A DNA stretch of 64,000 nucleotides from Acidobacteriota bacterium (GCA_965263035.1 OZ253580.1:4256001-4320000); one strand, 5' to 3'; numbered from the stretch's first letter, positions 1-20,569 are shown. A program made the numbers and translations. The notes: generated by a model from the sequence alone, not told the origin.

Positions 1-1
1 C

Positions 2-2674: not shown

Positions 2675-2959
2675 CCGCTGGCTACATCGGGTGCTCCCTG
2701 CCCCAACCCTGTCTCACGGGGCCTTCTAAAATTGGTAGATGATGCCGCTACTGATCTCGAGACTCCTCAGCCGCATGGTCGCTGGGCCTCGGTTGAACGG
2801 TCGGACTCGTCCACCCGTTCGCATACCATCCGTGATCCGCGAACGTCCTCTCGGGTTGAACGGATTTCCGTACTGAAAAGGGAATAGCAACTGATGTGTT
2901 GTTATCAAGTGGTTACATTGCAATAACTTATGGAATCTATGAGATAGTTAGGAAATCTG

Positions 2960-5236
2960 TTGGCAAATCAATTGATCATCGGACTTTGGAGTTGGAATCG
3001 CCTGATCATTCTGGGCGCCGTTTTGGCGCTGGCCGGCTGCGGCCGGGGTGGCTCGGAGAAGGGAACTGCACCTTACGGGCTGACTGAGAGGACCCTCTGG
3101 AATACCTCGCGGGTCGTTGGATCTCCCGAACCCCCGCCGCCGTACCAGCTCCGGCGCGTCTTTCCGCAGTACACCTTCGAGAATCCGACCTTCATCGCTC
3201 AGGACCCGAACTCGGAGCGGCTGTTGGTCGCCGAGTACGAGGGCCGGATCTACAGCTTCCAGGGGAACGATCCCGATGCCGGGAAAGACCTCTTCCTGGA
3301 CTGGAACCGCCGGGTTTCGGCCTTTTCCTTCCATCCGCGGTACCGCGACAACGGCCAGGTGTTCGTCTTCAGCCCGACCGACCCCAAGCTGGAAGGCAAG
3401 AAGGATGAAGAGGGCAACCCGGTCACACAGCTCAGCCGGGTCTCCAGGTTCGAGTTGGAACCGGGAAGCGCTCCGCCGCGGCTGCGTCCCGAATCGGAGA
3501 AGGTCATCATCCAGTGGCCGGCCGGTGGGCACAACGGCGGCGAAGCCATCATCGGTCCGGACGGGTACCTCTACGTTGCCACCGGAGACGGCACCGGATC
3601 CGCCGACCGCGACGATACCGGTCAGGATCTGGATGATCTGCTGGCGGTCATGATGCGGCTCGACGTGGAGCGGCCGGACCCCGGCCGGGCCTATTCCATC
3701 CCCGAGGACAATCCCTTCGTCGGCGTGCCCGGGGCCCGGGAAGAGATCTGGGCCTACGGCTTTCGCAATCCGTGGCGGTTCAGCTTCGATCCCGTCTCCG
3801 GTCGGCCCTGGGTGGGAGACGTGGGACAGGATCTCTGGGAGCTCATCGAGCTGGTCAGCCGGGGGAGCAATCACGGCTGGAGCCTCATGGAGGGCTCGCA
3901 CCCGTTCCATCCCAATACGAAGCCGGGTCCGACGCCGATCGTCCCGCCCGTCATGGAGCATCACCACCGGGAGAGCCGATCCATCACCGGCGGCTACGTT
4001 TACCAGGGAGACAAGTTCCCGGAGCTCCGAGGGGCCTACCTCTACGGGGACTACCAGTACGGCAAGATGTGGGGGCTGCGGTACGACCACGATGGGAAGG
4101 AGGTGGTCTGGCGCCAGGAACTCGCCGACTCGCCCGTCAAGATCGTCAGTTTCGGCCAGGGACGGGACGGAGCTTTCTATGCGCTGGACTACGACAGCGG
4201 TGAGATCTTCGAACTGGACCACCGGCCGGCGCCGGAGAAGAGACCGCCCTTTCCGAGGAAGCTGAGTGAGACCGGACTGTTCGCATCGGTGAAGGATCAT
4301 CGGCCGGCTTCCGGCGTCATCCCGTATTCGATAAACGTCCCCTTCTGGTCCGACGGCGCCGGCAAGGAGCGGTTTCTCGCCTTGCCGGGCGAGACGCGGA
4401 TCAAGTTCGACGAGGAAGGCACCTGGGAGTTCGGCGACGGTGCGGTGATGGTGAAGTCGTTCACCCTGGAGACCGAGGAAGGCAATCCGGAGACGCGCCA
4501 ATTCATCGAAACCCGGCTACTGGTGAAGCAGGTCGACCGGTGGGTCGGATACACCTACGCCTGGAACGACGAGCAGACCGATGCCGCGTTGGTGGAGGGG
4601 GACGGCCGAGACCGGACCTATCGGATCCAGGACGGGCGGGCGCCCGGCGGACAGAGAAGCCAAGTCTGGCGCTATCCGAGCCGGGAGGAGTGCATGTACT
4701 GCCATTCCCGCGCGGCCGGCTTCGCGCTCGGACTGAACACTCGTCAGATGAACCGCGACCAGGACTACGGCGAGACCACGGACAATCAGTTGCGAACGTT
4801 GGATCACATCGGAATCTTCAAGGAACCGCTCGAGAAGACTCCTTCAGAATACCCGGCCCTGCCGGATCCTTTCGGGACGGAGGCGGACGTGGAGGCGCGG
4901 ACCCGGGCCTATCTGCAAGTGAACTGCGCTATGTGCCATGCCCCGAGCGGCGGAGGAAACTCCCGGATCAACCTGACCTACACAGCGGAACCGGACAAGG
5001 TCCGCTTGATCGACGAGGCGCCGATTCACGACAACATGGGAGTAGACGGCGCCCGGATGGTGGTTCCGGGCGATCCTGAGCGGTCCCTTCTCTACCGAAG
5101 GCTGATCGTACGAGGTCTGAACCAGATGCCCCCGACCAGCACCAATCGGATCGACGAGCGCGGCGCGGAACTGGTGGCCGATTGGATCCGGCACCTCGGG
5201 ACCGAGTCCAAGCTCACTGCAATGTCGGTGCATTAA
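2960..5236 (+). CDS. PQQ-dependent sugar (glucose/sorbosone) dehydrogenase-family lipoprotein with a C-terminal c-type cytochrome domain
   Basis: Lipobox LAGC; HNGG, YGFRNPWRFSFD, GDVGQ, SITGGYVY motifs; two CxxCH motifs (CMYCH, CAMCH). Start codon uncertain. Confidence 0.85.
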   Translation: MANQLIIGLWSWNRLIILGAVLALAGCGRGGSEKGTAPYGLTERTLWNTSRVVGSPEPPPPYQLRRVFPQYTFENPTFIAQDPNSERLLVAEYEGRIYSFQGNDPDAGKDLFLDWNRRVSAFSFHPRYRDNGQVFVFSPTDPKLEGKKDEEGNPVTQLSRVSRFELEPGSAPPRLRPESEKVIIQWPAGGHNGGEAIIGPDGYLYVATGDGTGSADRDDTGQDLDDLLAVMMRLDVERPDPGRAYSIPEDNPFVGVPGAREEIWAYGFRNPWRFSFDPVSGRPWVGDVGQDLWELIELVSRGSNHGWSLMEGSHPFHPNTKPGPTPIVPPVMEHHHRESRSITGGYVYQGDKFPELRGAYLYGDYQYGKMWGLRYDHDGKEVVWRQELADSPVKIVSFGQGRDGAFYALDYDSGEIFELDHRPAPEKRPPFPRKLSETGLFASVKDHRPASGVIPYSINVPFWSDGAGKERFLALPGETRIKFDEEGTWEFGDGAVMVKSFTLETEEGNPETRQFIETRLLVKQVDRWVGYTYAWNDEQTDAALVEGDGRDRTYRIQDGRAPGGQRSQVWRYPSREECMYCHSRAAGFALGLNTRQMNRDQDYGETTDNQLRTLDHIGIFKEPLEKTPSEYPALPDPFGTEADVEARTRAYLQVNCAMCHAPSGGGNSRINLTYTAEPDKVRLIDEAPIHDNMGVDGARMVVPGDPERSLLYRRLIVRGLNQMPPTSTNRIDERGAELVADWIRHLGTESKLTAMSVH

Positions 5237-5247
5237 TGGACCCGGTG

Positions 5248-5297
5248 GAGCGGCGATTTCCAGTCGCCGAACAGGAGCAGCGATTTCCAATCGCCGA
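5248..5297. repeat. Tandem pair of REP-like palindromes (GGAGCGGCGATTTCCA.TCGCCG)
   Basis: Two imperfect hairpin units between the PQQ gene and the esterase. The homologous pair at 8079-8109/9660-9680 carries the IS110. Confidence 0.7.
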
Positions 5298-5304
5298 CCT
5301 CCCC

Positions 5305-7341
5305 ATGAACGGTAACCCGACAAGTCTCATGAACTCGTCCTCACAACAAATGCCGAGTCTCCGCAATTCCGTCTTGAAGATCTGCCTCTGCCTGCCCTGG
5401 ATGCTCTTCTTGCAGGCCCAGAGCACCAGCCGCCAGCTCACCCCCCTTCTGGAACGGGAAACCCTGGAACCGGGGTTGCTTCATCATCTGCTCGGCGAAT
5501 ACCTGCTGTCGCGATCTCCACAATTGCCGCCACTCCCCAGCCGTCCCGAAGAGTGGACGGCCCAGGTGAACGACATCCGCAGGAAGCTACTCCGGGAGGT
5601 GGTCTATCACGGCTGGCCCCAGGAATGGGTTAATGCACCCCTTCGTTTCCGAGAGGTGGGAGCCCCCCAGCAACAGCGAGGATACCGCCTCCGCAAGCTC
5701 CTGTTGCAGGTCTTGCCCGGCCTCCAGATCCCGGCACTGCTCTACGAACCGACGGGAGACCGGAGTTCCTTGCCGGCGGTCCTCAACGTGAACGGCCACG
5801 TCCGAGGCCCCGGCAAGTCCGTCGAGTACAAGCAGAAAAGGTGCATCAGCCTGGCCCGCCGCGGCGTGCTGGCGCTGAATCTGGAATGGCTGGCCTGCGG
5901 CGAGCTGTCCCATCCCGAGAACCAGCACTGGTTCGGCGCTCATCTGGACCTGGTGGGAGCCAACGCCATCGGACTCTTCTACCTGGCCATGCGGAAGGGG
6001 CTCGACTACCTGGAACAGCATCCCCGGGCCGATCCTAAGCGCTTGGCCGTCACCGGACTCTCGGGCGGCGGTTGGCAGACCATCATCCTCTCCTCCCTGG
6101 ACGAGCGGGTCGCCGTGTCCGTTCCGGTGGCCGGCTACTCGGCCCTGATCTCGAGAGTCGAACGGCCGCAAGACACGGGGGACATCGAGCAGAACGCCAC
6201 CGACCTGCTCCGGGGTCAGGACTACTCGACGTTGACCGCCATGCGGGCGCCCAAGCCGACTCTGCTGATCTACAACGCCGAGGACGAATGCTGCTTCCGG
6301 GCTCCCTTGGTCAGGCCCTACATCTACGACGACGTCAAGCCCTTCTTTGGCCTCTTCGGAAAGGGAGACCATCTGGGCTGGCATGAAAACACCGACCCCT
6401 CGACCCACAACTATCAACTGGACAACCGGCTTCAAGCCTACCGGCATCTGTCCCGGCATTTCGGCCTCGGGGATTGGGACCGTGAGGATCCCGTCGATCG
6501 GGAGATCCAGAGCTATGAGGATCTGGTGGTCGGTCTCCCGGAGGACAACCTCACCATCCTGGGCGTGGCGCGCCAGTTGGCCGACAGGAAGCTGCGGGAA
6601 GCGGACCCGGAGGAAGGTCGGGCGGTCGAAGATGTCGAGGACCGCAGGGCAAGACTTCGATCGCTGGTGCGTTTCCAGCCGGTGGCAGTCAAGCATGGGT
6701 GGGCGCTCCACAACACCAAGAATCGGGGGGTGGAATCGTATTCCTATCGAGTTCACTTCAGCGACGGACTCGTTGCATCCGCCCTCTGGGGGAAGGGAAT
6801 CGCCACTGCGGAGGGCGCTCCAGCCTCGATCCTGCTTCTGGACGAGGGCAAGGCGAAGGCGGGCCAACGAGCCTCAGACCGGATCAACCGGGGGGAACAG
6901 GTGCTGGTGGCGGACCTGATCCTGACCGGGGAAGCGCAGCCCCGGAGGAGGAATGCGTCGGACTCCCACCGCTACGCCCAACTCCTGGCCACGGTGGGAG
7001 ACCGGCCGCTGGGGATACGGGCTTCGCATCTCCTGGCTCTGGCCGGATGGCTCAAGGACAATCACGCCGCGGCGGAGGTCCGGGTAGAAGCTCAGGGATT
7101 CCGGAGCCAAGTGGTGGCCCTGCTGAGCGCGGCGCTGGACCCCGCGGCCTTTTCGGAGGTCAGGGTCGAGAAGGGCATGAAAAGCCTGCGCCACCTACTG
7201 GCCAAACCGGTCCGCTACAGCGAGGCTCCGGAACTGTTCTGCCTGGGGCTCTTTCCTGAATTCGATCTGGAGCGCCTGGTTCTCTTGGCCCGACCCACCC
7301 CGGTGGATCAGCGCGTCGAATCATCGGATTCCGGAGATTGA
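5305..7341 (+). CDS. Secreted alpha/beta hydrolase (acetylxylan esterase-like), copy 1
   Basis: Nucleophile elbow GLSGGG, signal-like N-terminus; near-identical paralog at 9689-11725. Confidence 0.8.
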   Translation: MNGNPTSLMNSSSQQMPSLRNSVLKICLCLPWMLFLQAQSTSRQLTPLLERETLEPGLLHHLLGEYLLSRSPQLPPLPSRPEEWTAQVNDIRRKLLREVVYHGWPQEWVNAPLRFREVGAPQQQRGYRLRKLLLQVLPGLQIPALLYEPTGDRSSLPAVLNVNGHVRGPGKSVEYKQKRCISLARRGVLALNLEWLACGELSHPENQHWFGAHLDLVGANAIGLFYLAMRKGLDYLEQHPRADPKRLAVTGLSGGGWQTIILSSLDERVAVSVPVAGYSALISRVERPQDTGDIEQNATDLLRGQDYSTLTAMRAPKPTLLIYNAEDECCFRAPLVRPYIYDDVKPFFGLFGKGDHLGWHENTDPSTHNYQLDNRLQAYRHLSRHFGLGDWDREDPVDREIQSYEDLVVGLPEDNLTILGVARQLADRKLREADPEEGRAVEDVEDRRARLRSLVRFQPVAVKHGWALHNTKNRGVESYSYRVHFSDGLVASALWGKGIATAEGAPASILLLDEGKAKAGQRASDRINRGEQVLVADLILTGEAQPRRRNASDSHRYAQLLATVGDRPLGIRASHLLALAGWLKDNHAAAEVRVEAQGFRSQVVALLSAALDPAAFSEVRVEKGMKSLRHLLAKPVRYSEAPELFCLGLFPEFDLERLVLLARPTPVDQRVESSDSGD

Positions 7342-7404
7342 GGCTCCGGCGATCAGGTAGCGCCGTGCCCTTTGACCTCCGGCCGTATGGCGCTGATGTA
7401 CTCG
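7342..7404 (-). pseudogene. Short remnant of the 3' end and flank of the homocysteine S-methyltransferase gene
   Basis: Aligns by eye with about 15635-15696 (GGCTCCGGCGATCA...CGCCGTGCCCTTTGACC...ATGGCGCTGATGT). Confidence 0.75.
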
Positions 7405-7410
7405 CGCCCC

Positions 7411-7485
7411 CTGGGAGCGGGGACATTCTTGTCCCCGTCTTCATCGCCGACGTGGAACCGGCGGCAGGAAAGCTGTTGCTCCCAG
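7411..7485. repeat. REP doublet (REPIN-like)
   Basis: GGGAGCGGGGACATTCTTGTCCCCG hairpin followed by a degenerate inverted partner ending GCTCCCA. Confidence 0.55.
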
Positions 7486-7584
7486 ACACCCCGTTTTTCT
7501 GGTTGGCTTGCGCCGGTCCGGAGCCGTTGGGGGCTACTAAGGAGGCTCTATACCTCTCAATATCTGAAGCTTCGTGGAATTCTC

Positions 7585-7609
7585 AGAGAAGTTGACTGTC
7601 CCCTTCTCA
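7585..7609 (+). repeat. 25-bp hairpin repeat R1 (AGAGAAGtTGACTGTCCCCTTCTCA)
   Basis: One mismatch to copies R2-R4 and R6; GAGAAG/CTTCTC arms. Confidence 0.9.
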
Positions 7610-7759
7610 CGCCTCCCGTTCGAACGACCCGGCTCCCTGGTCCCGCGGCTGATCCGATAACGTACTTTATTGGAGTCTGATTCCTTCTCCGGGTGCATCG
7701 CGGATTCCATCGTGGTCCGAGACTCCGGAAAGGGATAGAATAGGCAGAGAGGAGAATGC

Positions 7760-7984
7760 ATGTTCGACACGCTCACCGCTGCCGATCAACTTACCGCCGC
7801 CGGAATCGAGCCTCAACAGGCCAAAGCGATCGTGGCTGTCGTTCGCTCCAGTGAAGAGTCCGCCGTCACCCGGACCGAATTGGAAGCGGCGCTGGCCCAA
7901 CTGGAAACCGGGCTCTACAGGGCACTCCTCGTGCAGACTCTCACCATTGGCGGGTTGGTCGTCGCCTTGCCCAAGCTTCTGTGA
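7760..7984 (+). CDS. Small DUF1640/CCDC90-like coiled-coil membrane protein
   Basis: RBS GAGGAG; FDT...L..AG...QA.AI N-terminus, coiled coil, C-terminal TM helix. Confidence 0.75.
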   Translation: MFDTLTAADQLTAAGIEPQQAKAIVAVVRSSEESAVTRTELEAALAQLETGLYRALLVQTLTIGGLVVALPKLL

Positions 7985-7994
7985 ACGTGACCGC

Positions 7995-8019
7995 AGAGAA
8001 GGTGACTGTCCCCTTCTCA
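7995..8019 (+). repeat. 25-bp hairpin repeat R2
   Basis: AGAGAAGGTGACTGTCCCCTTCTCA, exact copy. Confidence 0.9.
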
Positions 8020-8025
8020 AGTCCG

Positions 8026-8109
8026 CCTCGGGACCGAGTCCAAGCTCGCCGCATTGTCGGTACACTGATGAATCCGGTGGAGCGGCGATTTCCAATCGCC
8101 GAACAGGAG
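8026..8109 (+). pseudogene. Diverged duplicate of the PQQ-dehydrogenase 3' end plus downstream REP
   Basis: CCTCGGGACCGAGTCCAAGCTC...CCGGTGGAGCGGCGATTTCCA.TCGCCGAACAGGAG matches about 5194-5277. Confidence 0.85.
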
Positions 8110-8531
8110 TATCCATGTTGCAAGTGGTGGGTGCTAATCGGTGTTTCCATCCCGTGTCGTTAGTACGTGATCTGTCCGGTCCAAAGGGCACAGGGTTAGG
8201 AGGAGCGTTCTTCCGCCGGAGGTGAGGCGGAGATCGAGCTGGATCCGCCGGGCGCCGTGCAGGGGGCGATGAGTGGACCGATAACTGGATCGAGGGGCCT
8301 GAGATCGTCGACGTCAGTCCTCCGGGAGGTCCGGATACGCCCTGGGGAGCGCCGGGTCAAGCCTCCGGCTCCTCCGCTTCGCTGCGCCCCTTCGGGTGAC
8401 CCGGCGCTCCCCAGGGCGTGAAGAGCTTTCATGGCCGTAAGCAAGCTTCCGGCCAGACTTGACCGGAAGTTCGACAGACGGCCATCAGGGGGTCCACACG
8501 CTCCCTTTCCTCACGGGGTCTCTCCGTGGCC

Positions 8532-9479
8532 TCAGAAGGTCGCTCGGGGCGCTACGGGCAACCAGGTGCGGTCCTGCCGGACGAGGGTGTTGGCCAGGAC
8601 GATGAGCTTGCGCATGACGGCGACGAGGGCCACCTTGCCGGGCTTGCCGCGCTCGCTCAGCCTCCGGTACACCTCGGCCAAGTCGGGGTTCCAGCGCAGG
8701 GCGGCCACCGCCGGCATGTACAGGAGCCGTCGCGCCCGCGCCCGTCCGCCCCGGATGAAGGCCCGGCCCTGCCAAGTCCCCGACTCGCGCGGAACGGCGG
8801 CCAACCCGGCCAGACTGGCGGCGGCCTTGCCGCTGAGGGCGCCCAGCTCGGGCATCTCGGCCAGCAGACCGGCGGCGGTGGTGGCCGCGATCCCCGGGAT
8901 GGAGGTGAGGATCTCCAACTTGCGGGCCCGCGCCTCGTCGGCCGCAATCAGCTGCTGCAATTTGCGGTCGATGGCGCGCAGGTGGCGCTCGAACATGTTG
9001 ATCTGGATCTGGTTCTGCTGTTTGAGCAGGGGTTCGCGGAGCTGTCGGCGGCGGTTGAGCGCGGCCGTGCGCTGGCGCATCAGCGCGTCCCGGGACGTCT
9101 GCAGATCCTGGAGCCGGCGTTGCGTTTTGGACGGCACCTGGGTCCGGCGCGGCTCCAGCGTGGCGGCCAGCTGGGCCAGTTTCCGAGCGTCTACGGCGTC
9201 GGTCTTGGCGCGGCTCCCGGTCGCCCGGGCGAAACACCGGGCCTGCCAGGGGTTCACCTTGGCCAACGGCAGCTTCGCTTTGGACAGCGCTTCCTCGAGG
9301 TCCCGGTGGTAGGGACCGGTGGCCTCGTACGCGACGCACTCGACCGGAGTTCCGATCCAATCAATCAGCGCCCGGAAGCCGGCCGGGTCATTGTCGAACT
9401 GGGCGGAATGGCCGTCGGCCAGCCGGTGCGCGTCCAGGTGCGCTTTCGAGATGTCGATGCCTACGGTATGCTGTTTCAT
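8532..9479 (-). CDS. IS110 family transposase/recombinase
   Basis: DEDD RuvC-like residues GIDISK, YEATG, KTDAVDA; SIPGI and RESG (catalytic Ser) in the Tnp domain; RKL near the C-terminus. Confidence 0.95.
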   Translation of the reverse strand: MKQHTVGIDISKAHLDAHRLADGHSAQFDNDPAGFRALIDWIGTPVECVAYEATGPYHRDLEEALSKAKLPLAKVNPWQARCFARATGSRAKTDAVDARKLAQLAATLEPRRTQVPSKTQRRLQDLQTSRDALMRQRTAALNRRRQLREPLLKQQNQIQINMFERHLRAIDRKLQQLIAADEARARKLEILTSIPGIAATTAAGLLAEMPELGALSGKAAASLAGLAAVPRESGTWQGRAFIRGGRARARRLLYMPAVAALRWNPDLAEVYRRLSERGKPGKVALVAVMRKLIVLANTLVRQDRTWLPVAPRATF

Positions 9480-9645
9480 CTTTCCTGTCTCCTGTGCTTG
9501 TCATTCGGGCCTTGATGCCCTCGTATCCATTCAGGACATCGGGAAAGACGGTGGCCGACCTCACTCCCATACGGTTCGTAACAGTCCGCGGCGGTACGGT
9601 CCAGCCACCGCCGTCCGGGTCGCTCATGAGCGACCCGGACGGCCC
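9480..9645 (-). ncRNA. Predicted IS110 bridge RNA
   Basis: 5' perfect 34-nt palindrome (9610-9643). Target loop carries ACCGCCGC and GGGAG; donor loop carries ATGGATAC and GACAAG. These match the flanking target and the element ends. Confidence 0.85.
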
Positions 9646-9688
9646 CATTTAAACAGACAAGCGGCGGTTTCCAGCCGCCGACCTCCCC

Positions 9689-11725
9689 ATGAACGGTAAC
9701 CCGACAAGTCTCATGAATACGTCCTCACAACAAATGCCGAGACTCCCCTATACCGTCCTGAAGATCTGCCTCTGTCTGTCCTGGATGATCGTCCTGCAGG
9801 CCCAGAGCACCAGCCGTCAGCTCACGCCCCTTTTGGAACGGGAAACCCTGGAGCCGGGGTTGCTTCATCACCTGCTCGGAGAATACCTGCTGTCCCGTTC
9901 TCCACAATTGCCTCCACTCCCCAACCGTGCGGAAGAATGGACAGCTCAAGCAAACGACACCCGACGGAAGCTGCTCCGGGACGTCGTCTATCGCGGCTGG
10001 CCCGGGGACTGGGTGGAAGCCCCGCTCCGTTTCCGTGAGGTCGGTCCGCCGCAAGAACACCGCGGCTACCGCCTCCGAAAGCTCCTGCTGCAAATCTTGC
10101 CCGGCCTCCAGATCCCAGCACTCCTCTACGAACCGACGGGAGACCGGCGTCCCCTGCCGGCGGTTCTGAATGTGAACGGCCACGTCCGAGGCCCCGGCAA
10201 GTCCGTCGAGTACAAGCAGAAAAGGTGCATCAGCCTGGCCCGCCGCGGCGTGCTGGCGCTGAATCTGGAATGGCTGGCCTGCGGCGAGCTGTCCCATCCC
10301 GAGAACCAGCACTGGTTCGGCGCTCATCTGGACCTGGTGGGAGCCAACGCCATCGGACTCTTCTACCTGGCCATGCGCAAGGGGCTCGACTACCTGGAGC
10401 GGCATCCCCGGGCCGATCCCAAGCGTCTGGCCGTCACCGGACTCTCGGGCGGCGGTTGGCAGACCATCATCCTCTCCTCCCTGGATGAGCGGGTGGCGGT
10501 GGCCGTGCCGGTGGCCGGCTACTCCGCCCTGATCTCGAGAGTCGAACGGCCGCAGGACACGGGGGACATCGAGCAGAACGCCACCGACCTGCTCCGGGGT
10601 CAGGACTACTCGACGTTGACCGCCATGCGGGCGCCCAAGCCGACTCTGCTGATCTACAACGCCGAGGACGAATGCTGCTTCCGGGCTCCCTTGGTCCGGC
10701 CCTACATCTACGACGACGTCAAGCCCTTCTTTGGCCTCTTCGGAAAGGGAGACCATCTGGGCTGGCATGAAAACACCGACCCCTCGACCCACAACTATCA
10801 ACTGGACAACCGGCTTCAAGCCTACCGGCATCTGTCCCGGCATTTTGTCCTCGGGCCCTGGGACCGGGAGGATCCCGTCGATCGGGAGATTCAGAGCTAT
10901 GAGGATTTGGTGGTCGGTCTCCCGGAGGACAATCTCACCATCCTGGGAGTGGCGCGCCAGTTGGCCGACAGGAAGCTGCGGGAAGCGGACCCGGAGGAAG
11001 GTCGGGCGGTCGAAGACCTCGAGGACCGCAGGGCAAGACTTCGATCGCTGGTGCGTTTCCAGCCGGTGGCAGTCAAGCATGGGTGGGCGCTCCACAACAC
11101 CAAGAATCGGGGGGTGGAATCGTATTCTTATCGAATCCACTTCAGCGACGGACTCGTTGCATCCGCTCTCTGGGGGAAGGGAATCGCCACTGGGGACGGG
11201 GCTCCAGCCTCGATCCTGCTTCTGGACGAGGGCAAGGCGAAGGCGGGCCAACGAGCCTCGGACCGGATCAACCGGGGGGAGCAGGTGCTGGTGGTGGACC
11301 TGATTTTGACCGGGGAAGCGCAGCCCCGGAGGAGGAACGCGTCGGACTCCCACCGCTACGCCCAACTCCTGGCCACGGTGGGGGACCGCCCGCTGGGCAT
11401 TCGAACTTCACATCTGTTGGCCCTGGCCAAATGGCTCAAAGACCATCGCGCCGCGCCGGAGGTCCGAGTCGAAGCCCAGGGTTTCCGGAGCCAGGTCGTG
11501 GCCCTGCTCGGCGCAGCGCTCGAACCCACGGCCTTTTCGGAGGTCAGGGTCGAGATGGGCATGAAGAGCCTAAGCCACCTGCTGGCCAAGCCGGTCCGCT
11601 ACAGCGAGGCTCCGGAACTGTTCTGTCTCGGGCTGTTTCCTGAGTTCGATATGGAGCGCCTGGTTCTCTTGGCCCGGCCCACCCCGGTGGAGCAGCGCTT
11701 CCAGGCGGAGAATTCCGGAGATTGA
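9689..11725 (+). CDS. Secreted alpha/beta hydrolase (acetylxylan esterase-like), copy 2
   Basis: GLSGGG; paralog of 5305-7341. Confidence 0.8.
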   Translation: MNGNPTSLMNTSSQQMPRLPYTVLKICLCLSWMIVLQAQSTSRQLTPLLERETLEPGLLHHLLGEYLLSRSPQLPPLPNRAEEWTAQANDTRRKLLRDVVYRGWPGDWVEAPLRFREVGPPQEHRGYRLRKLLLQILPGLQIPALLYEPTGDRRPLPAVLNVNGHVRGPGKSVEYKQKRCISLARRGVLALNLEWLACGELSHPENQHWFGAHLDLVGANAIGLFYLAMRKGLDYLERHPRADPKRLAVTGLSGGGWQTIILSSLDERVAVAVPVAGYSALISRVERPQDTGDIEQNATDLLRGQDYSTLTAMRAPKPTLLIYNAEDECCFRAPLVRPYIYDDVKPFFGLFGKGDHLGWHENTDPSTHNYQLDNRLQAYRHLSRHFVLGPWDREDPVDREIQSYEDLVVGLPEDNLTILGVARQLADRKLREADPEEGRAVEDLEDRRARLRSLVRFQPVAVKHGWALHNTKNRGVESYSYRIHFSDGLVASALWGKGIATGDGAPASILLLDEGKAKAGQRASDRINRGEQVLVVDLILTGEAQPRRRNASDSHRYAQLLATVGDRPLGIRTSHLLALAKWLKDHRAAPEVRVEAQGFRSQVVALLGAALEPTAFSEVRVEMGMKSLSHLLAKPVRYSEAPELFCLGLFPEFDMERLVLLARPTPVEQRFQAENSGD

Positions 11726-11808
11726 GACACGCGGGACCTTCCTGCGGTGAGACTTTTCCGGTGGAGTCGGCGGCCGGGCGTCTGGTGGATGAAACTCTGG
11801 CTAAAGGT

Positions 11809-11974
11809 CTACCCGCGCCCCTTCACCACCGGCCGCATGGCGCTGATGTGCTCGGGACCCGAAGCGCAGCACCCTCCGATAATCCGGGCTCCCATCCGTT
11901 TCCAGCTCAGGGCGAACTCGGCCATCCGTGAGGGAGTGTATTCGGCGTTCTGCAGAACGTCCGGACCCGAGCTG
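11809..11974 (-). pseudogene. Diverged 3' fragment of the homocysteine S-methyltransferase gene
   Basis: Encodes ..LQNAEYTPSRMAEFALSWKRMGARIIGGCCASGPEHISAMRPVVKGRG*, homologous to about 15655-15816; breaks off at repeat R3. Confidence 0.85.
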
Positions 11975-11982
11975 GACTTCTC

Positions 11983-12007
11983 AGAGAAGGTGACTGTCCC
12001 CTTCTCA
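11983..12007 (+). repeat. 25-bp hairpin repeat R3
   Basis: Exact copy. Confidence 0.9.
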
Positions 12008-12090
12008 CGCCCGTCCTAGGACCTGGACGCACACCGCGCCCGGCGGGACCCGGTGCTGGCGGCACAGCCGTCGGCAGGCTCAAACAAAAG

Positions 12091-12118
12091 CTAGTTCATT
12101 TTCCGTGAGATGAACTAG
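12091..12118. promoter_or_regulatory. Inverted repeat upstream of the P450 (possible operator)
   Basis: CTAGTTCAT-N10-ATGAACTAG in an AT-rich patch. Confidence 0.45.
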
Positions 12119-12199
12119 ACTTGGATCAGGAAGCAACGACCCCTTTCCCGGTCCAGAAGAAGCTGACGATCTTACTTGGATACTCGCACTGAGGAGACG

Positions 12200-13468
12200 A
12201 TGTCACTCGCAATTCGCAAAGCGATACGATCAGTCGCCGCGAACACGATGCTCGTGCGTGAACGCTGGGAGAGCGGTGTCGCATACAATCCGTTGTCGAG
12301 CAGCACCGCTCAGGATCCCTATCCCGTCTACGCGGCGCTACGCGAGCGGGACCCAGTGCACCGGAGCCGCCTGATGAATGCCTGGGTGTTCACGCGCCAC
12401 GCGGACGTGGAAACCATCCTGCGCGACCACAGGCGCTTCAGCAACGATCCACGCAAAGGCAACCTTACGCGCCGCCAGCGCGTCCAACTGCCGCCGGACG
12501 ACGATCTCAGCATGCTGTTCCTGGATCCACCGGACCACAAGCGTCTGCGGGGGCTTGTCAATAAAGCGTTCACGCCAAGGGCGGTGAACGCACTGGAGCC
12601 ACACATCCGAAGTCTTCTCGGGGCCTTGTTGGATGACATCGACGACCCCGCCGGCTTCGATCTCATGGTGGCGGTGGCCCAGCCGCTGCCCGTGATCGTC
12701 ATCGCCGAGATGCTGGGCGTGCCGCCAAAGGACCGCGCCCAATTCAAGATCTGGTCGGACCAGCGTGCGCGCCTTCTGGAGCCGACGATTGACTCCCATG
12801 ACCGCGAGGTCGCCGAGGCCACCTCCAGGACGTTCGATGACTATTTCCGGCCGATCATCAAGGAGTGCCGGGTGGCGCCCCAGGACAACATCGTGAGCGC
12901 GTTGGTCCAAGCGGAGGACGACGGCAACCAGCTGACTGAGCGCGAAACGTTGAACATGCTGCGCCTGCTCTTGATTGCAGGCAACGAAACCACTACCAAC
13001 ATGATTGGCAACAGCATGCTGGCCCTTTTACGTCATCCGGATCAGCTTCAACAACTTAGGGAGAATCCGAGCTTGGTTCCGGCGGCGGTTGAGGAGCTGC
13101 TACGCTTCGACTCACCGGTCCAGATGAGTATGCGGCGCCCGCTCAAGGACTGCGAAGTGAACGGTTTCCCCGTGCGTGAGCGCGAGAATATCGTCGTCCT
13201 GCTCGGCGCGGCCAACCGGGATCCGGATGTATTCGAAAATCCTGATTGGCTCGATTTCGAGCGAAGGGAAGGCAACCACTTGGCATTCGGCCGCGGCATC
13301 CATCATTGCCTGGGCGCCCCTCTGGCGCGTCTCGAAGGCCGGATCGTTCTGGAGACGTTGCTCGAACGCTTCCCGCAGATTAGCCTTCTCACCGAGCGAC
13401 CGCGCTTTCGCAATAGCATCGTGTTGCGCGGCCTTGAATCTCTGCCGCTTTACTGCGTAAGGGCCTGA
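12200..13468 (+). CDS. Cytochrome P450
   Basis: RBS GAGGAG; DPPDHKRLR, AGNETT (I-helix), EELLR (ExxR), FGRGIHHCLG heme motif. Confidence 0.95.
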   Translation: MSLAIRKAIRSVAANTMLVRERWESGVAYNPLSSSTAQDPYPVYAALRERDPVHRSRLMNAWVFTRHADVETILRDHRRFSNDPRKGNLTRRQRVQLPPDDDLSMLFLDPPDHKRLRGLVNKAFTPRAVNALEPHIRSLLGALLDDIDDPAGFDLMVAVAQPLPVIVIAEMLGVPPKDRAQFKIWSDQRARLLEPTIDSHDREVAEATSRTFDDYFRPIIKECRVAPQDNIVSALVQAEDDGNQLTERETLNMLRLLLIAGNETTTNMIGNSMLALLRHPDQLQQLRENPSLVPAAVEELLRFDSPVQMSMRRPLKDCEVNGFPVRERENIVVLLGAANRDPDVFENPDWLDFERREGNHLAFGRGIHHCLGAPLARLEGRIVLETLLERFPQISLLTERPRFRNSIVLRGLESLPLYCVRA

Positions 13469-13757
13469 GCGCCGCCCCTGCCCCTTCTCTCGGGGCGCAC
13501 AGATCAGTTGCGACCTGCCCGCAAAACGGTCCAGAAGAAGATGGCCAGACGCCCCTAGGAAGGGGTCAGACTAGAATAAGATCAACTTATCGTAGTCTGA
13601 AGAACAACTCTGAACCCCCGATTCTCGGCTCCGACCGCGGTCCTGAGCCGTCCCCTTCTAGTCCAACCCGGTGAGCCCATTTCGGCGAGAAAATCACATT
13701 TCCTGATGTGGAGTCGCCGACGAGTGGCGGAGTCACTCCAAGGCAAAAGGAGGTGTC

Positions 13758-14345
13758 GTGATGATGATCCCACCGATGAAATCCTGCCGAATCCAAGTCT
13801 TTGCGTTGGTCCTGGCCGGACTGATCGGACAGCCGGCGCTCGCGGAAGTGATCCCAGGACGCTGGGAGAAGGTGTCCGATCTGGAGTTGAGAACGTCCAT
13901 CACGGTGGAGCTCAAGAACGGGGATCAAGTCGAAGGGCGCTTTAATGGCCTGTCTGCCTCAGAGTTAGAACTTGAGACCCACTCCGCTCGCGCGATGATT
14001 CCGAAAGCCGATATCCAGATGATTACAGCTCCGGCGAAGGACGGTCTGGCCGAGGGAGCCGTAATTGGAACCGCGATCGGAACGGGTTTCGTGGGCGTAG
14101 TAGCTGCGACGTCCGGTCTTAGGAAGGGCCTCGATACCAGTGCAAAAGGAGCGTTGGTGTTCGCCCTCTTTGCAGTGGGAGTTGGAGCCGCACTAGGTAT
14201 AGCTGCCGATGCATCCACAAAGACCGACGACATCGTGGTCTACTTGGCGCCCGGAACTCCTCGGCGTCCCAAGCACGGAGATTCGGAGTGGTGGCCACCA
14301 GAGCCGCCACCGATCAAGGCAGAAGAGCCTGAGGATTCAGAATGA
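13758..14345 (+). CDS. Hypothetical secreted/membrane protein with a glycine-zipper-like region
   Basis: RBS AGGAGG; signal peptide (ALA), small beta domain, two Gly/Ala-rich hydrophobic helices. Confidence 0.65.
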   Translation: MMMIPPMKSCRIQVFALVLAGLIGQPALAEVIPGRWEKVSDLELRTSITVELKNGDQVEGRFNGLSASELELETHSARAMIPKADIQMITAPAKDGLAEGAVIGTAIGTGFVGVVAATSGLRKGLDTSAKGALVFALFAVGVGAALGIAADASTKTDDIVVYLAPGTPRRPKHGDSEWWPPEPPPIKAEEPEDSE

Positions 14346-14453
14346 CAGGGAATGGGATCTCCTCTGACCGATTAGTCCGCGTCACCTTGGACGAATGGAA
14401 GCAGCCCCTGATTTTCTCGCTACTCCCAGCAGGACCACGTCTTCGTACAGTAC

Positions 14454-14478
14454 AGAGAAGGTGACTGTCCCCTTCTCA
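14454..14478 (+). repeat. 25-bp hairpin repeat R4
   Basis: Exact copy. Confidence 0.9.
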
Positions 14479-14502
14479 CGTCGTGTCATAGTGCAATCTC
14501 TT

Positions 14503-14925
14503 TCAGGGAGCCATAAGTACTAGCATGACTACAATGATCGTGGTTGTGATCGTGCCGTGAAACAAACAGAGCGTACGCGACCAGGCTACGCTCCACGTTG
14601 TTCCCACGTTAAACGGGTGAGTGTTCATCGAGAAATCGACCGTTCCATCCTTAGTGTCTCGAACGTGGTCGTAGAGCTTCCGAAATAGGCGCTCTTGGCG
14701 CAGGAAATACGCATCCAGTGCCCAAAACATGACCGCCGGAAGGTACGCCACGTAAACAAAGAACCCGTTGGCATCGGCAGCGGCGAGGGCGAACAGTGCA
14801 GTCACCAATGTGACGGTCCAGCCTTTGACCATGAAAGAGTTTCCAGCCATACGTGTGATGACAGCTTGGATCATCTGGAGGTGTGCGATCTTGGTTTCTG
14901 CGCCGTTACCCATGTTCGGATTCAT
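14503..14925 (-). CDS. Small multi-TM membrane protein (HLQMIQAVITRMAGNSF..KGW family), possibly a defence effector
   Basis: Three hydrophobic helices, W.LDAYFL.QER.FR.LY motif; lower GC than the backbone. Start trimmed from the ORF track. Confidence 0.65.
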   Translation of the reverse strand: MNPNMGNGAETKIAHLQMIQAVITRMAGNSFMVKGWTVTLVTALFALAAADANGFFVYVAYLPAVMFWALDAYFLRQERLFRKLYDHVRDTKDGTVDFSMNTHPFNVGTTWSVAWSRTLCLFHGTITTTIIVVMLVLMAP

Positions 14926-15088
14926 CAACAGAAAACCTACCTGATATCCTGCACGATAATCCGTCCCACGCCTTAGGGTACAACAATTAGCTTTATTGGA
15001 CCCTGACGGTCTTCCCCCTGGTGGCCTCCAGTTCCCCGCGCCTAGACCTGCTGCCGCCGTCCGGGTTCGGATTCCGGAGGGCTTGGTC

Positions 15089-15220
15089 CTCGCGCCCGTG
15101 CTCACGCACTCACGCCCGTGCTCACGCACTCAGAGAAAGCGACTGTCCCCTTCTCAGTCCCCTTGCTTGATAAGAAAGGAGAGAAGGTGACTGTCCCCTT
15201 CTCACGCGGTCCCCTTCTCG
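15089..15220 (+). repeat. Repeat cluster: ~20-bp tandem duplication, hairpin repeats R5 (15132-15156, 2 mismatches) and R6 (15180-15204), plus partial copies
   Basis: CGCCCGTGCTCACGCACTCA twice; AGAGAAaGcGACTGTCCCCTTCTCA; AGAGAAGGTGACTGTCCCCTTCTCA; GTCCCCTTCTC. Confidence 0.85.
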
Positions 15221-15235
15221 CTGGGCAAGGGTAGG

Positions 15236-15634
15236 GTGAAGGCAGGATCGCCGGCCTCGGATCGGATCAACCGCCGGGAGCAAGTGGTGGTGGACCTGAT
15301 CCTGATCGGGGAAGCGCAGCCACGAAGGAGGAATGCATCGGACTCGCACCGCTACGCCCAGCTCCTGGCCACGGTGAGGGACCGCCCGCTGGGCATTCGA
15401 ACTTCGGATCTATTTGCCCTGGCCAAATGGCTCAAAGACCATCACGCCGCGCCGGAGATCCGGGTCGAAGCCCAGGGTTTCCGGAGTCAGGTCGTGGCTC
15501 TGCTGGGCGTTGCGGTGGACCCAACGGCATTATCGGAGGTCAGGATCGAGAAGGGCATGAAAGATCTTACCTGCCTGCTGGCCGAACCGGTCCGGGTGGA
15601 GCCGCGCTTCGATTCAGAGGATTCCGAAGACTGA
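15236..15634 (+). pseudogene. 3' remnant of the esterase (copy 3) with an internal deletion
   Basis: ASDRINR.EQV..DLIL.GEAQPRRRNASDSHRYAQLLATV matches the C-terminal part of copies 1 and 2. Confidence 0.85.
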
Positions 15635-15645
15635 GGCTCCGGCGA

Positions 15646-16635
15646 TCAAGTCACGCCGTGCCCTTTGACCACCGGCCGCATGGCGCTGATGTGCTCGGGC
15701 CCCGAGGCGCAGCAACCGCCGATTATCTGGGCTCCCATCCGCTTCCAGTTCAGGGCGAAGTCGGCCATCCGCGAGGGCGTGTATTCGGCGTTCTGCAGAA
15801 TATCGGGACCCGAGCTGACCTTCTGGTTGGTCAGCATGGGGTGGTTGACCAAGGGCCCGGTTGGGTTGTACCCGAGGTTGGCGTAGGCGCCGATGGGACC
15901 GGAGAAAGCGTTCCGGAGCCGGGGCAATCCGACGGAGATCGCCTCCGGGCTGCTGCACATCAGTAGGATCGCCCCCACTGGGCGTCCCTCCAGAGCCTCA
16001 GCCAAGTCTTCCAGCAGCTCGCCGTATTGCATGGTTCCGTCCGGTCGGATATGCCGAATGCCCAGACACACCGTGGCTCCTGTCTGGGAACAGGCGTCAA
16101 CGGCGGTCAGGCAATCCTCGATGAAGCCCATGTATTCGGCCTGGATCAAGTCCACCCCCATCTCGACCAGGAGACTGGCGTGTTCCGCCCACTCGCGGAA
16201 GCAGGCCTCCCGTCCCATCTGCCGGGTGTCGGACGCCGGAGTCGATTCCGGCGGTCCCTGGAGAGTGGGAGCCGCGATGCCGCCGGCCACGTAGGCCGCT
16301 GGGTTGAGCTTGTTCCGGGCCTTGAGCGCATTTTCGGCGGCCGCCCGTGCGTAACGTCTCCACTCCCCGCCCAACCCGCACCGCTCCAGCCGGGTGGGCC
16401 CCGTCCAGAAGTTGTTGCTGATGATGATGTCGGCCCCGACGCGCAGGTAGTCCTGATGGACCTGTTGCACGACGTCGGCGAATTCGACGTTCGCGGTCGC
16501 CGACCAGGCCTTCAGGCCGTCCGTCGCTCCCAGAAGGACATCGACGCCGCGCCTTTGCAGCTCGGAGCCGGTACCGCCGTCGAGCAGCAGTGTCCGGCCG
16601 TCGTTGAGTCGGTCCAGGATGTGTGGTCTGGGCAT
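15646..16635 (-). CDS. Homocysteine S-methyltransferase family protein
   Basis: LLDGGTGSEL, H.DYL..GADII, IIGGCC Zn-binding motif. Confidence 0.9.
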   Translation of the reverse strand: MPRPHILDRLNDGRTLLLDGGTGSELQRRGVDVLLGATDGLKAWSATANVEFADVVQQVHQDYLRVGADIIISNNFWTGPTRLERCGLGGEWRRYARAAAENALKARNKLNPAAYVAGGIAAPTLQGPPESTPASDTRQMGREACFREWAEHASLLVEMGVDLIQAEYMGFIEDCLTAVDACSQTGATVCLGIRHIRPDGTMQYGELLEDLAEALEGRPVGAILLMCSSPEAISVGLPRLRNAFSGPIGAYANLGYNPTGPLVNHPMLTNQKVSSGPDILQNAEYTPSRMADFALNWKRMGAQIIGGCCASGPEHISAMRPVVKGHGVT

Positions 16636-16869
16636 CGATCGGGTTCCTCCTGCGGTTCAGGATCGACACGCCTCGGGCTGCATCGGAGATCCCGTCCCGG
16701 CCCCATCGGGAGCCAAAATACCACTACGGTCTCGAGCACGTCAGAGCGATCTGTTGCGGAGGCCCGTTCCTGCACTGTCGTCTCAGGGAGAGAAACTCGG
16801 GAGACTGCCCTTGCCCATTGGTGGCGGTTCTGCGGAATAATGGAACCCGCCAACCAGGAGAGAATCGCC

Positions 16870-19470: not shown

Positions 19471-19534
19471 ACCTCCCCGAATCCGGCTTCGTGATCCGGC
19501 CCGGTCAGAAAATGGGACTGGTATCCTTGCCCGC

Positions 19535-20569
19535 ATGACGCCCTCTCCTTCCGCAGAAAGGATCCTCCGGGACTCGATCGTCATCGACGCCCACGGTCAT
19601 TTCTTGGACCTGGCCGCCACGTCGCGCCTCCAACTGCATGAGTCCCTGGGCGGGCTCACCGACGTGCCCCTGATGCGCGCCGGCGGCGTGTCCGCCCAGT
19701 TGACGGCCTGCTGGGTGCCCGACGTCCGGATCGGTGGACCCCACGGCAGCCGGCAGCCCTTTCGGGACGTCATGAAGATGTTGGATTACGTCCACCGGGA
19801 GTTGGATGGAGAAGCGGGGGACCACGTGGTTCTGGCCGGGACCGCCGGGGACATCGAAGGGGCGGTGGCACAGTCGAAGACAGCCTTCGTGTTGGGGCTC
19901 GAAGGGGGAGACGCGCTGCAGGGTGATCCGGATCGACTCCGGACGCTGTACCTGGCGGGCCTGCGCCATGTCTGCCTCGTCCACGAGGGACGGAACGCCA
20001 TTGCCGTGGCGACGCAGGTCTGGGAGGGGCAGACCATGCGCGCCTACGACCCCAGGATCGATGCCCCGGGAGGACTGAGTGCCGTCGGCAGGCGGATCGT
20101 CCGCGAGATGAACCGGCTGGGCATGCTGGTGGACGTCACCCACATGATCGAGGAGAGCTTCTGGGACACGCTGGAGGTCTCGACTGCGCCCGTGATCGCC
20201 TCCCACGGGAATGCGCGTTCTCTGCGGGATACCGTAAGGCACTTGACCGATGAGCAGATCCGGGCCGTCGCCGACACCGGAGGGATCGTCTGTCCCAGTC
20301 CCTTTCCGCTCGGCCCCACCCGGGAGCTGCCCAGTCTGGAGATGATGCTCCGGCATGTCGATCACATGGTCCGTCTGGTGGGCCCCGACCACGTCGGTTT
20401 CGGAACCGACTTCCTGGAGCAGACGGGATCCCGGCCCGCCGGTTTCGGGGACATTGGCGAGACACCGCGATTCGTCGAGGGGCTGCTGGAACTCGGATAC
20501 GGCTCCACGGCGATTCGGAAAATCATGGGCGGCAATTTCTTGCGGGTCTTCCGGCAGGTCGCGGGTTGA
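19535..20569 (+). CDS. Membrane dipeptidase (peptidase M19)
   Basis: IDAH, LEG, MNRLGMLVDVTH, ASH.N, HVGFGTDF, GGNFLRVF. Confidence 0.9.
   Translation: MTPSPSAERILRDSIVIDAHGHFLDLAATSRLQLHESLGGLTDVPLMRAGGVSAQLTACWVPDVRIGGPHGSRQPFRDVMKMLDYVHRELDGEAGDHVVLAGTAGDIEGAVAQSKTAFVLGLEGGDALQGDPDRLRTLYLAGLRHVCLVHEGRNAIAVATQVWEGQTMRAYDPRIDAPGGLSAVGRRIVREMNRLGMLVDVTHMIEESFWDTLEVSTAPVIASHGNARSLRDTVRHLTDEQIRAVADTGGIVCPSPFPLGPTRELPSLEMMLRHVDHMVRLVGPDHVGFGTDFLEQTGSRPAGFGDIGETPRFVEGLLELGYGSTAIRKIMGGNFLRVFRQVAG

Follow-up and report, generated by a model that had tools for sequence, protein, structure and literature searches.

A locus partitioned by a short co-oriented repeat

The 64,000-nt stretch of Acidobacteriota DNA examined here (GCA_965263035.1, OZ253580.1:4256001-4320000; hereafter the window, with positions counted from its first letter) sits in a single 6.2-Mb contig of its source genome, G000. 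Between a conserved gene for a GSDH/PQQ-type dehydrogenase and a conserved gene for a homocysteine S-methyltransferase (HMT), it holds an array of accessory genes, array W, that is punctuated by six copies of a 25-nt repeat, R, and by partial copies of the flanking genes. We file R as a repeat of the kind formed by repetitive extragenic palindromes (REPs) and REP-associated tyrosine transposases (RAYTs), with unusual array-forming and junction-marking behavior. Under a strict definition that allows at most three mismatches to the 25-mer, all six matches in the window lie on the plus strand; four are exact, and R1 and R5 carry one and two mismatches, respectively. None of 100 shuffled versions of the window yields any match, which confirms the six same-strand copies that a preliminary description had placed at 7585, 7995, 11983, 14454, 15132, and 15180.

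The host-derived DNA in W consists of copies of a segment, T, comprising the 3′ end of the GSDH gene, an esterase-like gene, and the 3′ end of the HMT gene. Self-BLAST of window positions 1-20000 aligns the two esterase-like genes, Est1 and Est2, over 2067 bp (5276-7342 versus 9660-11726, 92.2% identity). An 84-bp duplicate of the GSDH 3′ end (5194-5277 versus 8026-8109, 89%) begins 7 nt after the end of R2 at 8019, and a 169-bp duplicate of the HMT 3′ end (11813-11981 versus 15656-15824, 88.8%) stops 2 nt before R3. A third partial copy of T, a 377-bp duplicate of the esterase 3′ end at 15221-15594 that matches both Est2 (11222-11598, 84%) and Est1 (6838-7214, 81%), begins 17 nt after the end of R6 at 15204. 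The claim that R2, R3, and R6 lie near the limits of host-gene homology therefore holds, with duplications starting or stopping 2-17 nt away. The 39-nt context of R1 also resembles that of R3 (7575-7613 versus 11973-12011, 94.9%).

R is a near-perfect 23-nt palindrome with an 11-1-11 layout and one mismatched pair (GAGAAGGTGAC-T-GTCCCCTTCTC); it carries no T-run, and the conserved stretch around it is limited to 25-28 nt. Across G000, a second copy of the repeat’s own 3′ arm lies within 30 nt downstream of 10 of 72 R copies and upstream of 2. An origin in tRNA or tmRNA was rejected, as no ARAGORN record begins with GAGAAGG or ends with CCTTCTC and one tRNA-Gln shares only CTGTCCCC.

R forms same-strand arrays across the genome and its relatives

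The G000 contig contains 43 R matches at up to three mismatches, against none for a reversed control. A looser definition (a 23-mer with up to four substitutions that contains ACTGTCC) gives the set of 72 copies used below, 65 of which are intergenic according to a crude gene caller of our own (4588 genes, ~86% coding). The string GACTGTCCCC occurs 102 times versus 7 for its reverse; a genome-wide count of half-sites was uninformative, since reversed 11-mer controls matched 168 and 219 times. Neighboring copies less than 8 kb apart lie on the same strand in 43 of 48 pairs, in runs of 8, 14, 6, and 10 copies. Many copies lie within 100 nt of a gene end. Across the set, R shows almost no preferred direction with respect to its neighboring genes, matching the upstream gene in 37 cases and opposing it in 28, with 38 and 27 for the downstream gene. 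Replication direction gives no simple rule either, with 14 plus and 21 minus copies on one replichore and 27 and 11 on the other by hand count; cumulative GC skew places the G000 origin near 2.85 Mb and the terminus near 5.8 Mb. Every array has an R variant of its own (the one at 1.95 Mb has GTAACTG, for example, and the one in the window a CTCACG tail), and R copies are identical although the adjoining duplications have diverged by 8-19%.

Our panel of 31 genomes includes nine of the genus (G000 and eight congeners) and G023, which belongs to another family of the same order. An 18-mer core of R is present in all nine genomes of the genus, in several to 69 copies, and 45 times in G023; three further genomes in the panel have a single match each. 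In G023, dense R arrays at L027:3600-5830 and L029:1200-2750 carry a copy every 30-400 nt in tandem units of ~200 bp, with no open reading frame (ORF) between copies that matches a known family.

R marks the junctions between cargo and host-gene fragments

A local duplication boundary falls within 40 nt of 25 of the 72 R copies in G000, compared with 43 of 360 random intergenic control sites (odds ratio 3.9), a contrast whose p-value is overstated, since R copies of the same cluster do not count as independent. Diverged local duplications (74-99% identical) that start or stop a few bases from R are present in clusters A, B, C, E, F, and I alike. The GSDH-esterase-[array]-HMT locus is itself a hot spot in all eight congeners, with the same flanks and different cargo in each. 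R lies at breakpoints in G000 and in the eight congeners, in line with a test that the preliminary description had set.

The left ends of esterase 3′ fragments (scraps) allow these junctions to be compared directly. The 15 left ends examined in eight genomes, with near-coincident starts such as 6826/6838 counted once, fall at ~9 distinct esterase coordinates; seven lie 0-17 nt after an R with up to three mismatches, seven follow a degenerate R look-alike judged by eye, and one follows neither. The resident esterase sequences at the 15 junctions share no common target motif, and therefore the R side of the junction appears fixed and the host side arbitrary. In the arrays, cargo stands on the 5′ side of R and host scrap on its 3′ side. 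The many scrap starts behind R may reflect either independent joins or deletions anchored at R.

Junctions of the same type occur elsewhere. Two singleton R copies interrupt the match to congeners: similarity ends 4-6 nt ahead of R, and on the far side it picks up again at unrelated loci. A duplicated GNAT module, 99% identical, extends from 8 nt past one R to 11 nt past another, and one of its copies has an IS3-family fragment in place of the R right half. At L010 (G000 ~1959100-1959990), an IS3-family fragment with an rve domain takes the place of the right half of an R copy, the change falling exactly at the center of the palindrome; REP loops are known targets of some IS3-family elements. 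Beside the array at 5.55 Mb (array F), an Xer-like tyrosine recombinase gene (L009:4290-5480, G000 5547290-5548480), 61% identical to one at 5708243-5709220, loses its last four codons to R and reads on for 73 codons. This gene is a victim of the array, not its engine.

Metagenome contigs show variants of the locus. In all four runs, GSDH is joined directly to an Est2-like gene (5318 to 9709), skipping Est1, R1, the cargo, R2, and the insertion sequence (IS) that follows; in three of four, a different neighbor stands upstream of R3 (joint 14514 to 11969); and in one run the module with a putative transmembrane (TM) protein is joined to HMT without R5, R6, or the scrap. These variants fit loop-in and loop-out through T.

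A RayT-like Y1 transposase family is flanked by the R core motif

The preliminary description had taken the repeat for a cleavage and joining signal, perhaps of a trans-acting HUH or REP-associated tyrosine transposase. In G023, locus L029 encodes a 311-aa Y1_Tnp protein (PF01797, 36.6 bits against a cut-off of 23) whose gene has three inverted R-like copies upstream and five direct R copies downstream. G000 contains four copies of this gene, one of them at 1832165-1833097, all missed by a Pfam scan of the genome; they are 80-85% identical to the G023 protein in amino-acid sequence and 90-97% identical to one another in DNA. The motif [AG]ACTGTCC[CT] was scored around these four genes and at 14 further loci in eight genomes. 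Each of the four G000 copies forms part of a conserved unit that has the core motif in inverted orientation at its left edge and in direct orientation past its right edge; all 14 further loci share the arrangement, with 26 inverted and 0 direct motifs upstream and 28 direct and 4 inverted downstream. In total, 19 of 19 loci have the R core motif on both sides of the gene, in inverted orientation upstream and in direct orientation downstream. The upstream-type repeat (e.g. GGAAAAACAGACTGTCCCCTTCTCAC) closely resembles the right half of R, and its 3′ end points away from the gene, just as cargo in the arrays stands on the 5′ side of R and host scrap on the 3′ side. Homologs of at least 71% identity are present in 10 of 10 genomes with multiple R copies and in 0 of the 21 others, where the best match reaches 58%.

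Residues H63 and H65 (NH[FY]H) and Y162 (LY.ELNA.RAGL), which by analogy we take to be catalytic, do not vary across 13 sequences that share 52-84% identity with the first. In a Foldseek search, the predicted structure (mean pLDDT 68.5, core 83-96) best matches 4er8_A (E 2.5e-4, TM-target 0.59), the REP-associated tyrosine transposase of E. coli in complex with a REP hairpin; the ISDra2, IS200, and IS608 TnpA proteins come next. The match to the NCBIfam model REP_Tyr_transpos falls short of the cut-off (50.2 bits against 80), and phmmer against PDB sequences returned nothing relevant. Source records name relatives of the protein, labeled Acidobacteriota, "REP element-mobilizing transposase RayT". 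At the level of association, the proposal of a trans-acting enzyme is well supported by the flanking repeats, the co-occurrence, and the fold match. The same association places R, as one class, in the REP-like repeat family of this 311-aa RayT-like Y1 transposase, which is encoded elsewhere in the genome. Since the R family flanks a RayT-like gene, the arrays look like a new way for such repeats to build variable gene islands.

Two other candidate sources of R were rejected. Two 224-aa-type Y1 genes matched by PF01797 have other hairpins (e.g. GGGGGTTAAAAACCCCC) at their flanks instead of R. These Y1/RAYT-type genes lie at G000 2482813-2483487 and 3477778-3478464, one of them split by a frameshift, and the hairpin repeats at their flanks include GGGGGTT[AG]AAAACCCCC and GGGGGGACGATTAGTCCCCCC. 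R does not form the ends of a TnpB (IS1341-like) element either, as 150 and 337 nt separate the ends of a 1247-bp element from the nearest R copies. Copies of this TnpB-only element that are 99.8% identical lie at G000 1946000-1947246, inside the 1.95-Mb R array, and at 1310799-1312045.

Cargo and other features of array W

The features of the locus are collected in Table 1. Among the gene assignments first made from the sequence, GSDH/PQQ, HMT, and cytochrome P450 are confirmed by Pfam, and the esterases and the DUF1640-like ORF have sub-threshold matches only. The ORFs first described as secreted and TM proteins do contain signal-like and hydrophobic stretches, respectively, and match no family. 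Two elements are new to the partition of the locus: a 1.55-kb IS110-family insertion sequence between the GSDH scrap and Est2, and a 125-bp repeat at 7409-7533. Because the segment 8110-9659 is an IS110-family insertion sequence with its own transposase, the claim that no recombinase adjoins the array holds only for HUH and tyrosine enzymes, for which the window has no matches.

Table 1 Features of the GSDH-HMT locus in the window
Feature	Position	Strand	Remarks
GSDH/PQQ-type dehydrogenase, cytochrome c domain	2972..5236	+	PF07995; conserved left flank
Est1, esterase-like, T copy 1	5236..7341	+	self-BLAST; sub-threshold hydrolase match only
Est-HMT spacer and short HMT 3′ scrap, closing T copy 1	7342..7410	-	7286-7410 versus 15579-15703
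125-bp dispersed repeat with hairpin GGGGACATTCTTGTCCCC	7409..7533	+	not part of R
R1	7585..7609	+	1 mismatch to 25-mer
Cargo 1: 74-aa ORF, DUF1640-like	7760..7984	+	sub-threshold PF07798 match, E 6e-4
R2	7995..8019	+	exact; 11 nt past stop of DUF1640-like ORF
GSDH 3′ scrap, opening T copy 2	8026..8109	+	self-BLAST
IS110-family insertion sequence inside T copy 2	8110..9659	-	transposase 8532-9479
Est2	9689..11725	+	92% identical to Est1; sub-threshold hydrolase match only
HMT 3′ scrap, closing T copy 2	11813..11981	-	abuts R3; self-BLAST
R3	11983..12007	+	exact
Cargo 2a: cytochrome P450	12200..13468	+	PF00067
R right-half look-alike CTGCCCCTTCTC	13478..13489	+	9 nt past P450 stop; homology to G006/G007 P450 locus ends there
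Cargo 2b: ORF with signal-like N-terminus	13776..14345	+	multi-copy family in genus; no Pfam match
R4	14454..14478	+	exact; between convergent ORFs
Cargo 3: hydrophobic (TM) ORF	14503..15129	-	no family match
R5	15132..15156	+	2 mismatches
R6	15180..15204	+	exact
Extra R right half GTCCCCTTCTC	15209..15219	+	between R6 and esterase scrap
Esterase 3′ scrap, T copy 3	15221..15594	+	runs into intact HMT; self-BLAST
Intact HMT	15646..16635	-	PF02574; conserved right flank

Several modules recur in congeners. G006 shares the R-ORF-R module of the DUF1640-like ORF and has an ortholog of R4 before the same TM module, which also adjoins HMT in G002, G003, and G006; variants resembling R5 (AGAGAAGGCGACTGTCACCTTC...) precede the esterase scrap in G003 and G006. 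Est2 is nearer than Est1 to orthologs in six congeners. The P450 gene is ~90% identical to genes at another, mutually syntenic locus in G006 and G007 (12172-13471 versus L030 and L031), with homology confined to the ORF, from 28 nt before the ATG to 3 nt past the stop. A 97% identical copy of the 1247-bp TnpB element interrupts the G007 gene (L031).

The 125-bp repeat, which starts with hairpin GGGGACATTCTTGTCCCC, occupies the same HMT-scrap junction in most congeners and was considered as a conserved left end for R. This was ruled out, as it is an independent miniature inverted-repeat transposable element (MITE) with four other full copies in G000 at ~93% identity; the hairpin alone is found at ~50 places. 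The IS110-family element is present in more than 10 G000 copies at 96-99% identity, and its empty site appears in one metagenome run. Beside it lies a small hairpin (CGGCGATT...AATCGCCG, 8083-8101), which other copies of the IS also have as a neighbor. Elsewhere in G000, a MITE of ~167 bp (L023:10425-10591, G000 4650425-4650591) has ~200 scattered copies at 92-99% identity, and five diverged copies (85-90%) of a higB-higA toxin-antitoxin module lie within 75 kb (L023:3376-4390, L023:9474-10353, and G000 4579168, 4584963, and 4601152), two of which abut R.

A proposed route to array formation

Our favored reading, which we consider evenly poised, is that R is a REP-class end used in trans by a RayT-like Y1 HUH enzyme and that cargo spreads by homologous recombination. 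The RayT-like enzyme would act on R at a distance from its own gene, and the 3′ edge of R, just past CCTTCTC and often followed by A, would be the fixed end at which the DNA 5′ of R, the cargo, is joined to arbitrary nearby chromosomal positions. Segments between co-oriented R copies could then leave as circles together with a fragment of the neighboring host genes, T, and re-enter the same locus, in the genome of origin or in a related one, where T would provide the homology for ordinary recombination. Such re-entry would leave the pattern T-cargo-R-T′, which is found three times in a row in the window and may be the trace of a T-bearing circle integrating by a single, Campbell-type crossover. 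An exchange between two direct R copies would make such a circle, for example [T(5194-7410)-MITE-R1][DUF1640-R2]. Later R-anchored deletions would shorten the downstream T copy, and the outcome would be a co-oriented, integron-like array without an integron integrase. Both the cleavage and joining at R and the homology-driven integration of cargo are inferred. The T-R...R-T pattern, present in W and in cluster E, and one metagenome variant fit the flank-carrying cargo model put forward in the preliminary description, short of proof. The more specific proposition, that the RayT-like Y1 enzyme excises and joins arbitrary neighboring DNA by means of one co-oriented REP-class end and that the resulting cassettes spread between related genomes by homologous recombination through the host fragments in them, is one that we advance tentatively and would sooner doubt than accept.

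A number of observations weigh against this reading. No cleavage product, circle, or R-R junction was observed; the metagenome contigs break at R, which places rare forms, R-R circles, and deletions beyond their reach. The arrays hold one co-oriented end type, and we know of no Y1 system that works in this way. The initial portrayal of R as a hairpin is weak, R being a palindrome with one mismatched pair: the single-strand fold is weak (predicted -5.3 kcal/mol, z -2.0), covariation between the arms is marginal in G000 (7 compensatory changes versus 3.4 expected, a value reached by 72 of 2000 shuffles), and the G023 form has a 5′ part, TAAATGATGAC, that is unable to pair with the 3′ arm and does not fold. 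For these reasons the conserved entity is likely to be the sequence TGACTGTCCCCTTCTC rather than a hairpin. Next to the G000 Y1 genes stand sister classes of the repeat (e.g. GAAAAACAGACTGTCCCCTTCT) in place of the exact R class, and the tie to the enzyme is therefore one at family level; the Y1 family itself has 2-12 matches per R-bearing genome. Est1 and Est2 are each other’s closest relatives (92% versus at most 89%), which fits an old duplication within the lineage as well as import, and a tree of 11 esterase 3′ segments (377 columns), with 1 of 8 inner branches supported, does not separate duplication in situ from import. Finally, the P450 gene changed locus between species with no full R bordering its region of homology, some higBA modules have an R and others lack one, the junctions share no target motif, and the arrays are full of IS110, IS3-family, IS5/ISNCY-type, and TnpB elements, MITEs, and toxin-antitoxin modules, a mixture typical of islands.

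Alternative explanations

The last four of these observations, together with the IS3-family fragment in the center of one R, favor an account in which the RayT-like enzyme spreads R, a step for which the same association holds, and R takes no part in gene capture. R might then simply persist in dispensable, hypervariable intergenic DNA, and the palindrome might stimulate the illegitimate or homologous rearrangements seen as join points and anchored deletions, with cargo arriving by other means. We judge this account possible at a level well short of even, and it retains substantial weight because of the missing R-cleavage product, the P450 move, the higBA modules without R, and the many other mobile elements. 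It leaves unexplained why neighboring copies lie on one strand in 43 of 48 cases regardless of gene direction and replichore, why the junction falls at the 3′ edge of R with cargo 5′ and host scrap 3′, and why arrays have their own R variants.

The reading of R as the core site of a tyrosine recombinase, whether dif-like, of the IMEX type (integrative mobile elements exploiting Xer), or an unusual integron, with arrays built by repeated circle integration, draws on the shape of the repeat, an imperfect dyad of 23-25 bp with a better conserved right arm; many core sites have one better conserved arm. The arrays are also co-oriented and rich in toxin-antitoxin genes, G000 has 27 Phage_integrase matches, and one Xer-like gene abuts array F. 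That gene is itself truncated by R, arrays W, B, and C have no adjoining integrase, the host-side partners are arbitrary, which is not expected of reciprocal site-specific exchange, and the motif flanks the Y1 gene at every one of the 19 loci. The integron-integrase model TIGR02249 reaches at best 78.7 bits in G000 against a cut-off of 265, with 0 of 20 matches above the cut-off, in agreement with the earlier statement that the array is not an integron. We consider a tyrosine recombinase improbable. Slightly less probable still is an RNA or regulatory element common to accessory genes, such as a terminator, an mRNA-stabilizing hairpin, or an operator: 65 of 72 copies are intergenic, often less than 100 nt from a gene end, and palindromic in the genus, but an Rfam scan of window positions 5000-16500 at E values up to 1 gave no match, R is oriented almost at random to the flanking genes, folds weakly, and lacks a T-run, the G023 form does not fold, and the breakpoints would be left unexplained. 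A chimeric join of strains at the repeat, which might be suspected from a repeat-rich locus where three of four metagenome runs differ upstream of R3, is very improbable given that the same architecture is present in eight other genomes of the genus, five of them single-contig, and that independent contigs span R1-cargo-R2 (X14, 7468-8025) and R4-TM-R5-R6-scrap (X10, 14193-15616).

Relation to known repeat and cassette systems

The closest relatives of this system are the REP/REPIN-RAYT systems (E. coli TnpA-REP, PDB 4ER8; the REPINs, doublets of REPs, of Pseudomonas), which likewise combine a Y1 HUH protein, here with 4ER8 as its best fold match, with a gene flanked by its own short extragenic repeats in inverted orientation and with abundant intergenic repeats. 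They differ in that the protein here has ~311 aa, with a C-terminal extension of ~130 aa and an NCBIfam RAYT score of 50 against 80; in that R occurs in co-oriented arrays around genes, not as inverted doublets; and in that its hairpin is weak or absent. The multiple Y1 matches per genome also contrast with classical RAYTs, which PMC5581495 describes as single-copy genes flanked by REPINs.

The Y1 transposase fold is shared with IS200/IS605 elements and palindrome-associated transposable elements (PATEs). The ends of these elements point the same way on one strand, and unrelated DNA can lie between them. In contrast to IS200/IS605, R junctions have no conserved target tetra- or pentanucleotide, the arrays contain only one end type, the candidate left end being an unrelated MITE, and the TnpB elements of G000 are not bounded by R. 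In ISCR1 (insertion sequence common region 1) and complex class 1 integrons, a circle carrying a flank fragment integrates by homologous recombination and leaves a partial flank duplication. Array W resembles this IS91-like system in having cargo flanked by a partial duplication of the neighbor and one end fixed and the other variable, and differs in that the signal is a 25-nt repeat used many times and the enzyme is encoded elsewhere. A search for Y2 enzymes (PF04986) found no match in G000 and is uninformative, as the control matched in none of 14 genomes.

Chromosomal integrons and clusters of attC sites lacking an integrase (CALINs) are alike in having co-oriented short sites that bound small genes, often toxin-antitoxin or uncharacterized ones, in arrays that differ between species. 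An attC site measures ~55-140 nt and has R′′, L′′, L′, and R′ boxes, the paired R and L boxes ending in GTTRRRY. R, at 25 nt, has neither attC boxes nor GTTRRRY, and the cassettes here include copies of neighboring host genes. Short repeats also delimit mosaic modules between conserved genes in the dRS3/NIME arrays of Neisseria (NIME, Neisseria intergenic mosaic element), in minimal mobile elements, and in the tycheposon islands of Prochlorococcus. In these systems, cargo is exchanged via homologous flanks or by repeated integration, leaving partial duplicates; they use other repeats and enzymes, and to our knowledge none is tied to a RayT-like Y1 protein. A literature keyword search of titles and abstract openings found no description of arrays such as these, and motif strings matched only primers and similar text.

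REP repeats and RAYT transposases are widespread, and their use to the cell is unsettled. Here, a REP-class repeat marks the seams of accessory islands and is tied to partial duplications of neighboring genes across nine species. If the RayT-like enzyme makes these seams, RAYTs would have a role in building variable arrays, genes could be captured without an integron integrase, and the hot spots of gene turnover in this little-studied lineage would be accounted for. The more specific proposal of single-ended excision and joining would, if true, add a third kind of bacterial gene cassette beside integrons and ISCR elements, one that could arise from any chromosomal or foreign segment, host-gene copies included, and would give domesticated RAYTs a function.

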